From a virus: DNA of 64,000 bases. Position 1 is the stretch's first letter. Each line of letters opens with the position of its first letter. The notes below the pieces were generated by a model. The model was not told the DNA's origin. It did no database searches and worked only from the letters and a program-made list of their open reading frames with translations. The position numbers and the translations under genes were made by a program. Shown here in pieces: positions 23,036 through 42,470 of the stretch. Location: positions 69,861-133,860 of the IMG/VR virus record IMGVR_UViG_3300049218_000083; one strand, given 5' to 3'.

Positions 23036-23320
23036 AGTGGCAGCTTATGAGGAACCCGGAAAGCTGCCGAAACCTGGTGAGAAATTACGCTGCTAGGCGG
23101 AATTCCTCAGATGCATTTTCAGTTGCATTTATACTGTTTTGCTTCATTTAGATGGTCGAACCACCAAGACGATAGCTTGTCTGTTGCCTTTACTTTTATC
23201 TCTTCCCGTCGAAAACTATTTCGCCCCCGAAGGTCGCCTAGCAGGGCGATAGTGGTGGAGGCGTCGGTTTCGCAACCGAGTCCGCAAAGCATTATAGCAA
23301 AGGAATTACAACATTCTGTT
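23036..23320 (-). ncRNA. ssrA: Circularly permuted (two-piece) tmRNA
   Basis: T-arm plus CGCCTCC-A-CCA (ends 23253), 24-nt spacer hairpin, then GGGGGCG..TTCGAC (G1=23228); G3-U70; tag ATENASEEFRLAA* at 23126-23085 after ATAAAT; P2 pairing; 3' hairpin GGCAGCTT/AAGCTGCC. Confidence 0.92.
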
Positions 23321-25144: not shown

Positions 25145-25221
25145 TGGCGCGCGAGGCGGGCATCGAACCCGCAACCTTCAGTTTTAGAGACTGCGCTCTA
25201 GCCAAGTTGAGCTACACGCGC
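25145..25221 (-). tRNA. Amber suppressor tRNA (anticodon CUA), Trp-like body
   Basis: Loop CTCTAAA; TTCGA T-loop; G73; encoded CCA. Confidence 0.88.
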
Positions 25222-39255: not shown

Positions 39256-39582
39256 TTACTTCACCTGGACGTTCATCGCTGACGTTTTGTTCTGGGTCAC
39301 AAATCCGACATTGCCTTTGGTCACATGAATGACTGTGGCTGTCTTCCAATGAAGTTTGGTCACGTTGGAGCTGCTACCATTCAACGGAACTCCAAATACC
39401 AACTCAACTCGATCGTTCTTTTTGAGTCCCAGGCTTTCGTCAAGGTGAATCAAGCAGCCACCAATGCTGACGTTGACAACCTTACCGACCTGGCGTTTCT
39501 CACCAATTTTGCACAGGACAAAAATCCGTCCAACAGGTAGAAACCGTTGGTTGAGTCTTTTCTCTTCGCCCGAATAAGTCAT
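39256..39582 (-). CDS. PilZ-domain protein
   Basis: RLNQR (RxxxR) and NVSIGG (D/NxSxxG); ORF-track 5' extension is occupied by tRNA-Thr. Confidence 0.78.
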   Translation of the reverse strand: MTYSGEEKRLNQRFLPVGRIFVLCKIGEKRQVGKVVNVSIGGCLIHLDESLGLKKNDRVELVFGVPLNGSSSNVTKLHWKTATVIHVTKGNVGFVTQNKTSAMNVQVK

Positions 39583-39656
39583 GGAGCTCCCTTGCGGAAT
39601 CGAACCGCATTCTCTCGTGTACGAAACGAGTACATCGCCAGCAATGCTTAGGGAGC
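39582..39656 (-). tRNA. tRNA-Thr(CGT)
   Basis: Loop TTCGTAC; cloverleaf with CCA. Confidence 0.9.
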
Positions 39657-40190
39657 GTTGCTCAATTGAACCTTCAATGTCAAAGGGTAGATCTTGTTGA
39701 GCTGAAGGCTGGTCTTTCGAGTGTAAGGAATCTTTACCCAATGATAGTCAGACTTCAACTGTTTTTCGATCGCTTCGTATTTAGCGCACTCATCGACATA
39801 GCGAGTTTGCTCAGCTGCGTTCTTGGCATCAGCATCCGGATCTCCAGGACCATGGGTCCGAGTGATATAATCCCAAATGCCAGTTTTGCTGTACCACTGA
39901 CGCGTTGGATACTTGTGGCCCAACTTCTGCATCGTGTTGTAATCCCACTCTTTGCCAGTCACCTTGTGGACAAACACGCGGCGATACAGTTGCTGTTCAA
40001 CGCAAACAGAAATTTCCTGCGGACGATCCTTGGTTGCTTCCCGGACAATACGATATCCGAGATAGATACCCTTCGCTGCGTATGCGCTGCCTGTACACTT
40101 GGTCACAGACAAGATCGGATCGCCTGGATTGATCACGTCACCATGATCATTGGTGAACGGATTTTTCAAAATCGGTTTTAGTTTCGCCAC
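39648..40190 (-). CDS. Hypothetical protein (N-term similar to 41237-41638)
   Basis: TND.G..INPGD..VT..KGIYLG. Confidence 0.6.
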   Translation of the reverse strand: MAKLKPILKNPFTNDHGDVINPGDPILSVTKCTGSAYAAKGIYLGYRIVREATKDRPQEISVCVEQQLYRRVFVHKVTGKEWDYNTMQKLGHKYPTRQWYSKTGIWDYITRTHGPGDPDADAKNAAEQTRYVDECAKYEAIEKQLKSDYHWVKIPYTRKTSLQLNKIYPLTLKVQLSNAP

Positions 40191-40219
40191 GTCATTCTCC
40201 TCTTACAAGTCAAAATCGG

Positions 40220-40467
40220 CACTATCCCTATAGCCAGGTTTCTGTCTGTGTTGAGCCTATCCCAACACTCATCCATCATTCGCCTCAGGCTTTCGCCTGG
40301 TCACCAATTGTGACTGCCGCAACCCGACCTCATAGGGTGAAGCTTCCCTCGGTCTGTTAGCGTTGCTGGCCACGTTGCTAGTGCTAACGACTTTCGTCTC
40401 CTAACAGCTTCGAGCCAGTCCTGAACTTCCTCTAGGGTTTCCGCCCCAGCGATGGATCGGGATAGTG
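40220..40467 (-). ncRNA. rnpB: RNase P RNA, compact form
   Basis: P1 CACTATCCC/GGGATAGTG; CR-I GAGGAAGTTCAGG; CR-V ACAGAAACCTGGCT; P4 AG(U)UCAGG:CCUGGCU; P2 ATCCATCG/TGATGGAT; P19 GTGTTGGG/CTCAACAC. Confidence 0.88.
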
Positions 40468-40472
40468 AAACC

Positions 40473-40838
40473 TTAAACTTTCTTGGCCTTTTGAACTGCT
40501 TTCTTCGCAGCTTCAATTCTAGCGCGTTCTTTCTTAACCACCTTCTCCATCTCGAGTATCTTGGCCTTTGCTTGAAGCATGATCTCGATGGCCTTGTCGA
40601 TCTTCTCGAGTTTCATCTCGGAGTCGGAGTCGTATTCTTCGAAGTCCCAAGTGATCACGCGATTGCAATCACCAAGACTCATGGTGAAGTCAACGTTGAT
40701 GTAATCCTTGTCTGGCGAATCAGCCTTGCTGACATAGACGTGCGCTTTGTAGCGAATGAAGCTGCCGGTGTCGAGTGGATCGATAAAGTCTCCACCAGTG
40801 ACACGGATCAGGTCATCGCGATTCTTTTTCTTCGGCAT
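40473..40838 (-). CDS. Hypothetical protein
   Basis: 121 aa, coiled-coil C-term. Confidence 0.6.
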   Translation of the reverse strand: MPKKKNRDDLIRVTGGDFIDPLDTGSFIRYKAHVYVSKADSPDKDYINVDFTMSLGDCNRVITWDFEEYDSDSEMKLEKIDKAIEIMLQAKAKILEMEKVVKKERARIEAAKKAVQKAKKV

Positions 40839-41214
40839 CTACTTCTCCATCTGGTAAAACTGCGTCCTTGGGAACTTCTTTCCAAAGACCATCATCTTTG
40901 ACTTCCACTTTGATTTGTCGCATCTGGCGCGCAACATTGTCCTGGATCACTGCCTCGGTGCCGTTGCGTCGCATGATTTCCATCTTGTGCCACACCTTGA
41001 ATTTATCAGTGTTGCACATACGTTCAAAGGCAGTGCTGCGGTTTTGGCGCTGTACTCTAGAGTCTTCTGCATACCCATGGGCACCACTGGCTCGGTGGGT
41101 ACAGTGAACCGCTGAGTTCGTCTTATTCTTCTTCTGACCACCATTGCCGGTGCCGCGAGTGTAGGACCAATCGCAGTCGGCAGCGGTAACAGAGAAGAGT
41201 AACTCGCGAGCCAT
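40813..41214 (-). CDS. Class I release-factor-like GGQ peptidyl-tRNA hydrolase domain protein
   Basis: RGTGNGGQKKNKTNSAVHCTH..SRVQRQNR..A. Confidence 0.88.
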   Translation of the reverse strand: MARELLFSVTAADCDWSYTRGTGNGGQKKNKTNSAVHCTHRASGAHGYAEDSRVQRQNRSTAFERMCNTDKFKVWHKMEIMRRNGTEAVIQDNVARQMRQIKVEVKDDGLWKEVPKDAVLPDGEVDAEEKESR

Positions 41215-42019: not shown

Positions 42020-42107
42020 TGGCGGAGAGCAGAGGAATCGAACCCCAACCCATTACTGAGTCCCTTTCTTTAGCAAAGAAGCGTGAGCCCAGCCCACGTT
42101 ACTCTCC
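42020..42107 (-). tRNA. tRNA-Ser(GCT)
   Basis: Loop TTGCTAA; long variable arm; GCCA. Confidence 0.88.
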
Positions 42108-42470
42108 AGATCTCTTTCTGTTGTCTTGATTGACTTTCTTAGTGATGTCAATGAAGTCAGGATACATTTTCTTGAACGTTTTGACAGCGTCATGAATGTT
42201 ACCAGCATACCACTCGGAGTTCTTTCCAGTTCCTGAACCTTTGAATGGCAACCATGCGTTGTGCATAGCCTTCTCAACTTCCTTGTGGTCTTCCATTTCT
42301 GCGACCAAAAGAACTTCGGCTGTCATGCCCGGAAACACTTTGTAGCGGTTCAGGGATTTCTTCAATTCCAACAAGTCACGGCTGGTCTTATCGACTCTGC
42401 CGAGCTTAAAGAAGGTCTTCCGTCCTGGATGTTTGATGATGTAAATTGAACCACTGGTTTTCTTCATCAT
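42099..42470 (-). CDS. GIY-YIG / T5orf172-like protein
   Basis: GSIYII..FKLGR..VEKAMH..SEWY. Confidence 0.65.
   Translation of the reverse strand: MMKKTSGSIYIIKHPGRKTFFKLGRVDKTSRDLLELKKSLNRYKVFPGMTAEVLLVAEMEDHKEVEKAMHNAWLPFKGSGTGKNSEWYAGNIHDAVKTFKKMYPDFIDITKKVNQDNRKRSGE

Follow-up and report, generated by a model that had tools for sequence, protein, structure and literature searches.

The DNA analysed here (the window, a stretch of 64,000 nt) corresponds to bases 69861–133860 of a 166,743-bp IMG/VR record (GC, 47.7%). The source genome is that of a T4-like myovirus encoding a gp20-type portal, a tail sheath, baseplate wedge proteins, and a gp43-type DNA polymerase, and its portal protein shares only ~50% identity with those of the nearest cultured relatives. 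Among sequencing runs, the locus was found only in moss-metagenome DNA runs, and the runs listed included none of RNA. A 248-nt RNA element is located at 40467–40220 on the minus strand and is flanked by two ORFs: the stop codon of the upstream ORF (40473–40838) lies 5 nt before the element, and the GTG start codon of the downstream ORF (39648–40190) lies 29 nt after it. The 180-aa protein encoded downstream is an orphan in a set of 5.8 billion proteins. The element folds with a minimum free energy of −95.9 kcal/mol (z = −3.6 compared with shuffled sequences), and a promoter/terminator scan revealed nothing specific to it. Unlike many of the relatives described below, the RNA of the window is placed between protein-coding genes and not between tRNA genes.

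Several other features were identified near the element. One gene upstream, at 40813–41214 (minus strand), a 133-aa protein is encoded whose sole domain is RF-1 (GGQ; PF00472, 2.8e-13); its homologues were detected by tblastn in >200 records, nearly all of them mycobacteriophages and many of ~153–161 kb, in which they are annotated as ‘RF-1 peptide chain release factor’. At 39256–39741 (minus strand), the window encodes a stand-alone PilZ-domain protein (PF07238, 7.7e-6), and the 5′ part of its gene overlaps tRNA-Thr(CGU) at 39582–39656. A protein with a T5orf172 domain (PF10544, 1.6e-5), which is typically found in phage genes of the mobile or homing-endonuclease-like kind, is encoded at 42099–42470 (minus strand), between the tRNA array and the RNA element.

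The structural parts of the element are as follows.

40220–40467, minus strand: the whole RNase P-like RNA, from the 5′ end to the 3′ end of P1 (248 nt; the match of covariance model R1, described below, spans 40215–40474)
40459–40467, minus strand: P1 5′ strand CACUAUCCC, forming 9 bp with GGGAUAGUG at 40220–40228
40450–40457, minus strand: P2 5′ strand AUCCAUCG, pairing with UGAUGGAU at 40271–40278
40432–40449, minus strand: P3 hairpin CUGGGG-CGGAAA-CCCUAG
40420–40431, minus strand: J3/4 and P4 5′ strand (CR-I) AGGAAGUUCAGG with a bulged U, in which GAGGAAGUUC is invariant in 25/25 family members
40414–40418, minus strand: P5 5′ strand CUGGC, pairing with GCCAG at 40366–40370
40406–40411, minus strand: 5′ strand of the P6 pseudoknot, GAAGCU, pairing with AGCUUC at 40339–40344 in the P16/17 loop
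40377–40405, minus strand: reduced specificity domain, a P7-like stem GUUAG/CUAGC around the hairpin GAC-GAAA-GUC (40389–40398)
40363–40365, minus strand: J5/15 CAA, directly after the P5 3′ strand
40318–40362, minus strand: P15 (CGC/GCG), L15 (UAACA / GGGUU), P16 (GACC/GGUC), and P17 (GGG/CCC)
40286–40314, minus strand: two accessory hairpins found in larger members only, GUCAC-AAUUG-GUGAC and the P18-like CAGGC-GAAA-GCCUG
40278–40285, minus strand: J18/2 (CR-IV) AGGCGAAU
40248–40268, minus strand: hairpin at the P19 position, GUGUUGGG-AUAGG-CUCAACAC
40232–40247, minus strand: J2/4 and P4 3′ strand (CR-V) AGACAGAAA-CCUGGCU, in which ACAGAA is aligned with E. coli A347–A352

The earlier note had described an intergenic, minus-strand element of 248 nt with the catalytic core of RNase P RNA, and every motif that it quoted was found at the position it gave, including CR-I (GAGGAAGUUCAGG, 40432–40420, minus strand), CR-V (ACAGAAACCUGGCU, 40245–40232, minus strand), and the CR-IV-like segment (AGGCGAAU, 40285–40278). 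The 9-bp P1, P2, and P3 that it listed are all present in the window and all covary in the family. The P4 that it had built from CR-I and CR-V, AG[U]UCAGG / CCUGGCU, consists of 7 bp and a bulged U and maps onto P4 of E. coli. Its description of a reduced specificity domain (S-domain) also holds, since in the window no more than 43 nt (40371–40413) lie inside P5, but neither of the two pairings that it assigned to this domain (CTCG/CGAG and CTGTTAG/CTAACAG) is conserved: the segment CUAACAG is not an S-domain strand but belongs to J5/15–P15–L15, and CGAG sits in P16. Similarly, a hairpin is present at the P19 position as proposed, but it is an insertion private to the window member, shared by none of the other 20 sequences in the alignment, and is not a feature of the family.

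The earlier note had named the lack of a covariance-model hit as part of the grounds for rejecting the RNase P identity, and cmsearch with the Rfam models gave no RNase P match on the window. No RNase P family was found in the window at the gathering score or in the 501-nt element region at E ≤ 10 with lax filters, and neither RF00010 nor RF00373 matched anywhere in the whole source genome; RF00010 likewise gave no match in five genomes that carry related RNAs. Because this direct test on the window was negative, comparative evidence was sought from relatives. A blastn search of the element against INPHARED phages and 15 related IMG/VR records yielded no real match, no related locus was found with either flanking protein, and an exact three-block pattern derived from the window RNA had 0 matches in IMG/VR. 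Relatives were instead reached through the portal protein, which led to related IMG/VR records, the two longest of which were taken in full and scanned for motifs. One of these, a 116-kb record (G001) with 77% identity in the portal protein, contains a syntenic RNA upstream of a homologue of the downstream ORF of the window. The two ORF products share only 31% amino-acid identity; the two RNAs retain long identical blocks, and their differences in helices are compensatory.

Further copies were obtained from IMG/VR and JGI metagenomes with a 15-base pattern common to the two RNAs and with a composite pattern, and another was added later by blastn. The pattern GCCAGCAANNNNAACAGA occurs at 118 loci in IMG/VR, 0 of which are R1 family members, and the composite pattern had 0 matches in GTDB genome contigs, which therefore provided no host clue. 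In total, 24 further distinct homologues were identified, giving 25 sequences with the window and an overall size range of 197–293 nt. Members of 197–285 nt are found in two complete 160–170-kb phage genomes with terminal repeats (G017 and G018) and in shorter contigs. Members of ~280–290 nt, located directly between tRNA genes, are found in jumbo phages with genomes of 277–465 kb (G021–G024); these jumbo copies (L110 in G021, L135 in G022, L173 in G023, and L108/L312 in G024) are ~285 nt long, have ACAGGA in CR-V and extra hairpins, and occur with 25–58 tRNAs. The copy added by blastn is from a cultured phage, Stenotrophomonas phage vB_SmaS-DLP_6 (DLP6; KU682439.2:105770–106022, equivalent to L326:3956–4208, plus strand; R1, 162.5 bits). 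It occupies an unannotated gap between the CDS AAY80_165 and tRNA-Arg(CCG), 3 nt upstream of the latter. In the DLP6 paper, 30 tRNAs are listed and RNase P goes unmentioned (PMC5349666). On one contig with a family RNA (L175, 3517–3585, minus strand), a sub-threshold match to the fluoride riboswitch was also seen (26 bits compared with a gathering score of 34, E = 0.005).

A covariance model of 208 positions (R1) was constructed from 11 relatives, with the window sequence left out. In the source genome, R1 gave a sole match at 40215–40474 (minus strand; 90.9 bits, E = 1.9e-23) that covers model positions 1–208 of 208, and a search of other phage loci totalling 1.74 Mb gave 0 false positives. 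Among the 25 sequences, the window copy diverges most and has the lowest R1 score (the others, 137–222 bits); by this match, it is a clear member of the phage RNA family. In the structure generated automatically by RNAalifold for R1, P3 is missing and CR-I includes a hairpin that is probably spurious (86% paired, little covariation); P3, P4, and P6 were therefore counted by a separate script.

Covariation supports P1–P4, P6, P7, P15, and P16. In the alignment of 25 sequences derived from the covariance model, standard pairs occupy 93.0% of cells (75.9% in shuffles), and double-sided changes were found in 30/50 pairs. The covariation score of 0.458 was reached by 0/500 shuffles (0.150 when shuffled), and slid partners scored ≤0.08. 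A second count was made on a MAFFT alignment of 21 sequences, from which the three private hairpins of the window were cut out for alignability. Here, 59 pairs including P4 and P6 gave 1138/1230 canonical cells and double changes in 37/59, compared with 925 ± 9 canonical cells in shuffles and 28–43% pairing with slid partners. In this alignment, compensatory double changes occur in 8/10 columns of P1, and 6/7 columns of P2 covary with canonical pairing in 147/147 cells. The terminal G–U pair of P2 is invariant and is the counterpart of E. coli G19/U335. P3 is paired in 99% of cells with covariation in 4/5 columns, P4 is canonical in 98% with two covarying columns (AU/GC and GC/CG), and the P7 stem is paired in 94–98% with one covarying column; P15 and P16 covary strongly. 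P5 is invariant in 25/25 sequences, and hence shows no covariation.

P6 is formed by 6–8 nt immediately after the P5 5′ strand, which pair (6–8 bp) with the loop of the P16/17 hairpin. Double changes were found in 7/8 of its columns, with variants such as GCAAGGA/UCCUUGC, GCGGAAA/UUUCCGC, GUUGAAAC/GUUUCAAC, and GAACCGU/ACGGUUC; the window has GAAGCU/AGCUUC, a pairing taken from the sequence itself because the alignment shifts its register by 1 nt. The bulged U of P4, ACAG(A/G)A in J2/4, and CAA in J5/15 are invariant across the 25 divergent members, GGGU in L15 is invariant or nearly so, and the consensus of J18/2, AGAUGAAU, carried by most members, is identical to E. coli A328–U335. These data establish that the fold is under purifying selection. 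P5 encloses ~40–85 nt across the family, and in place of the S-domain there is a conserved module of small size (GGAG-hairpin-ACCACCGUGAU), for which no alignment to the S-domain positions of Rfam was obtained. The interval between P15 and J18/2 is empty in 7/11 A3 sequences, and the smallest members (~200 nt) lack both accessory hairpins and the P19-position hairpin. The accessory GAAA-loop hairpin lies directly 5′ of J18/2, in the same place as P18 of E. coli.

Several relatives were aligned over the full length of Rfam RNase P models. RF00373 matched L104 (51.8 bits, E = 1.3e-11, or 6e-14 on 341 nt), L115 (46.6 bits, E = 5.5e-10), and L149 (40.8 bits, E = 3.8e-8), and RF00010 matched L310 (42.2 bits, E = 1.1e-10); RF02357 gave a weak match to L129 (22.9 bits, E = 0.84). 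No Rfam RNase P match at E ≤ 1 was obtained for the DLP6 copy or for two jumbo copies (L313 and L322). All of these scores are far below the gathering scores (84 bits for RF00373 and 100 bits for RF00010), and in the case of the archaeal RF00373 (40.8–51.8 bits in the relatives) only the shared catalytic core was matched. The alignments are in register at P1, P2, P3, GAGGAA-GU, P5, GCAA, P15, the GGGU of L15, AGAnGAAU, and ACAGAA-CC-GGCU-A. The window segment GAGGAAGUUC is aligned to the Rfam consensus GAGGAAAGUCC, P5 and the following GCAA are aligned to the same parts of RF00010 and RF00373, and GGGU(U) of L15 is aligned to GGGUa of RF00010 and to E. coli G291–U294. The S-domain positions are skipped: RF00010 has 160 model positions inside P5, and the aligned phage RNA has 54 nt. 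P6 and P15–L15(GGU)–P16 together mark the family as bacterial type A. Thus, the RNase P identity proposed for the element is supported through its homologous family members and not by a direct match of the window, and homology between the family and type-A RNase P RNA in the catalytic domain is almost certain.

The source genome contains 39 tRNA genes, 37 of which are in the window (ARAGORN; the earlier note had counted 41), and a permuted tmRNA (ARAGORN, Rfam), which that note had also placed in the window. The tmRNA is located at 23085–23313 (minus strand; RF04321, 100.7 bits). An alphaproteobacterial tmRNA model also matches it, which is a weak host clue. CCA is encoded in 37/39 of the tRNA genes of the genome. 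In RNase P, the GGU of L15 pairs with the 3′-CCA of the tRNA, and the encoded CCA fits the L15 sequence of the element. A tRNA gene with the anticodon CUA (amber-suppressor type, labelled ‘Pyl’ by ARAGORN) is located at 25145–25221 (minus strand), outside the main tRNA array. A tRNA-Ile(UAU) that is unusually long (92–96 nt) is common to the window phage (44672–44767, minus strand), its relative G001 (L097, 7425–7519), and DLP6 (L326, 2924–3015), which suggests that it carries a conserved insertion or intron.

The presence of the RNA is associated with large tRNA arrays. The search covered 23 related or carrier records. Nine carry the RNA and contain 39, 37, 41, 25, 58, 53, 52, and 25 tRNAs, with 9 on a 37-kb fragment, and the 14 related records that do not carry it contain 0–14 tRNAs; two of these 14 are genomes that are complete or nearly so, with 5 and 3 tRNAs. 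Most members lie in or beside tRNA arrays, and the RNA adjoins tRNAs in the jumbo phages, in L149, and in DLP6. R1 gave no match in S-CRM01, KVP40, or Melnitz; as S-CRM01 and KVP40 are tRNA-rich T4-like phages with no detectable copy, the RNA is not required for a large tRNA array. A search for RnpA (PF00825) was negative in the source genome and in five carrier genomes that are complete or nearly so (≥90%), whereas the same search was positive in 10/10 bacterial control genomes. The absence of rnpA that had been reported for the window thus extends to the whole genome.

Considering the homology, the conservation of the fold, and the co-occurrence with large tRNA arrays, the element is likely to be a working phage RNase P RNA that borrows the RnpA of the host and matures the phage's own tRNAs. 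We infer catalysis, the protein partner, the substrates, and the formation of the RNA ends as follows. The element would be a miniaturised, phage-encoded RNase P RNA gene of bacterial type A origin, whose catalytic domain is retained in full (P1–P5, P6, J5/15, P15/L15, P16/17, J18/2, and J2/4) and whose S-domain is reduced to a short stem and a hairpin. The RNA may be co-transcribed with the neighbouring minus-strand genes and then excised from the transcript. Since the phage has no rnpA of its own, the RNA would bind host RnpA and cleave the 5′ leaders of ~39 phage pre-tRNAs. The permuted tmRNA is a possible further substrate. The phage would thereby gain its own processing capacity for its big tRNA array.

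The altered P4, the almost absent S-domain, and the precedent of an inactive viral RNA from camelpox count against a working enzyme and leave room for other readings. The S-domain normally reads the T-loop of the tRNA, and its near loss, together with a P4 in which one pair is lost and another is now a U–G wobble, would suit an RNase P-derived but non-catalytic decoy or sponge that binds host RnpA or pre-tRNAs and redirects or inhibits host RNase P. Such a decoy would agree with the solid homology to RNase P RNA and with the lack of a phage rnpA, which means that any protein bound would be that of the host. The camelpox RNase P-like RNA is inactive in vitro (PMC3001073). However, the invariant positions of the family are tied to substrate binding and chemistry and not to protein binding alone, and placement in or with large tRNA arrays fits processing better than inhibition of the host, so that we regard a decoy as unlikely. 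An active ribozyme with changed specificity, acting on polycistronic phage mRNAs, on the precursor of the permuted tmRNA, or on RNAs of the host, would account for the replacement of the S-domain by a short conserved module that is unaligned to Rfam, for the location of the window RNA between protein-coding genes, and for the presence in the genome of a permuted tmRNA that needs processing. Nevertheless, the GGGU of L15 and the CCA-encoding tRNAs point to canonical tRNA substrates, as does the location of most members in or beside tRNA arrays. Moreover, RNase P RNAs with a reduced S-domain, natural or engineered (e.g. Pyrobaculum type T), still cleave pre-tRNA, and a change of specificity is accordingly also improbable.

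That the element resembles RNase P RNA by chance, or is an unrelated structured RNA of the phage or the leader of an mRNA, might be argued from the lack of a direct Rfam match in the window and from a 71-codon ORF (40301–40516, minus strand) that overlaps the element. The ORF was rejected as a coding gene because it is not conserved in the relatives, whose changes preserve base pairs. The full-length Rfam RNase P alignments of the relatives (E = 1e-8 to 1e-11), the R1 match, and the compensatory changes, at a score that no shuffle reached, effectively refute a chance resemblance, which we consider extremely improbable. Returning to a working phage RNase P RNA, a more elaborate form of it is conceivable but rather doubtful, i.e. 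an orthogonal enzyme that, with its minimal S-domain, might act protein-free, or else might capture host RnpA and thereby favour the CCA-encoding tRNAs of the phage while the host enzyme is starved. If this were true, the RNA would be a takeover or counter-defence device, e.g. against tRNA-targeting defences, and would do more than supply extra capacity.

RNase P RNA is among the few universal ribozymes and is treated as a cellular or organellar gene. If the element is a working RNase P RNA, viruses can carry their own ribozyme for tRNA 5′ processing together with tRNA arrays, and the family would be a natural source of ‘minimal RNase P’ designs of ~200–250 nt with a stub S-domain that bear on the needs of substrate recognition and RnpA assembly. 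It would also account for a stretch left unannotated in the genomes of tRNA-rich phages. Because the whole family falls below the Rfam thresholds, these RNAs will be missed by annotation pipelines. The presence of a member in the cultured phage DLP6 makes the idea directly testable.

The family is apparently undescribed, as full-text searches of the literature turned up no publication in which a phage-encoded RNase P RNA is described. For comparison with type A (RF00010; M1 RNA), the E. coli rnpB sequence was fetched and mapped nucleotide by nucleotide. P1–P5, the P6 pseudoknot, P15–P17, J18/2 (AGAUGAAU), and ACAGAA of J2/4 are in the same order and register in the phage RNAs. P4 of the phage RNAs corresponds to A67–G74 / C353–U359 with the U69 bulge retained, CAA of J5/15 corresponds to the A248 region, and the 3′ side of L15, GGGU(U), corresponds to G291–U294. 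In contrast to E. coli, the phage P4 lacks the A66:U360 pair at its proximal end and has a U–G wobble in place of C70:G357; relative to A65–G74, CR-I has one A fewer and U in place of C70. The phage RNAs are also smaller (197–293 nt; 248 nt in the window, in agreement with the earlier note, compared with 377 nt in E. coli), the P18-like GNRA hairpin is optional, and recognisable P8–P14 and CR-II/III are absent, so that they do not have the full specificity domain of type A. They score far under the Rfam gathering threshold, and their carriers have no rnpA.

Pyrobaculum type T (RF02357) is a natural, archaeal mini RNase P RNA of ~200 nt in which the catalytic domain is kept and most of the specificity domain is gone. 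The phage RNAs resemble it in their miniature size and reduced S-domain, but type T functions with archaeal proteins, whereas the phage RNAs have the bacterial type-A P6, the L15 GGU–CCA loop, and a small S-domain stub. Other small RNase P RNAs, e.g. that of Mycoplasma fermentans (~276 nt) and those of the mitochondrial RPM1 type, have peripheral helices reduced around a conserved P4 core. These RNAs serve as the sole enzyme of a cell or organelle, whereas the phage RNA would be an extra copy in host cells that already possess RNase P. Among viruses, the camelpox/orthopoxvirus RNA has an RNase P-like secondary structure and showed no cleavage of pre-tRNA in vitro (PMC3001073). That RNA, however, is from a virus without a tRNA array, whereas the phage family retains the nucleotides of the catalytic core and occurs with 25–58 tRNA genes. 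Theta (HDV-like) ribozymes are also phage-encoded, are located in tRNA arrays, and have a proposed role in tRNA maturation (PMC10879173). These are small, self-cleaving ribozymes that act in cis on tRNA 3′ trailers, whereas the RNA described here has a different fold and would be a trans-acting, multiple-turnover 5′ endonuclease.
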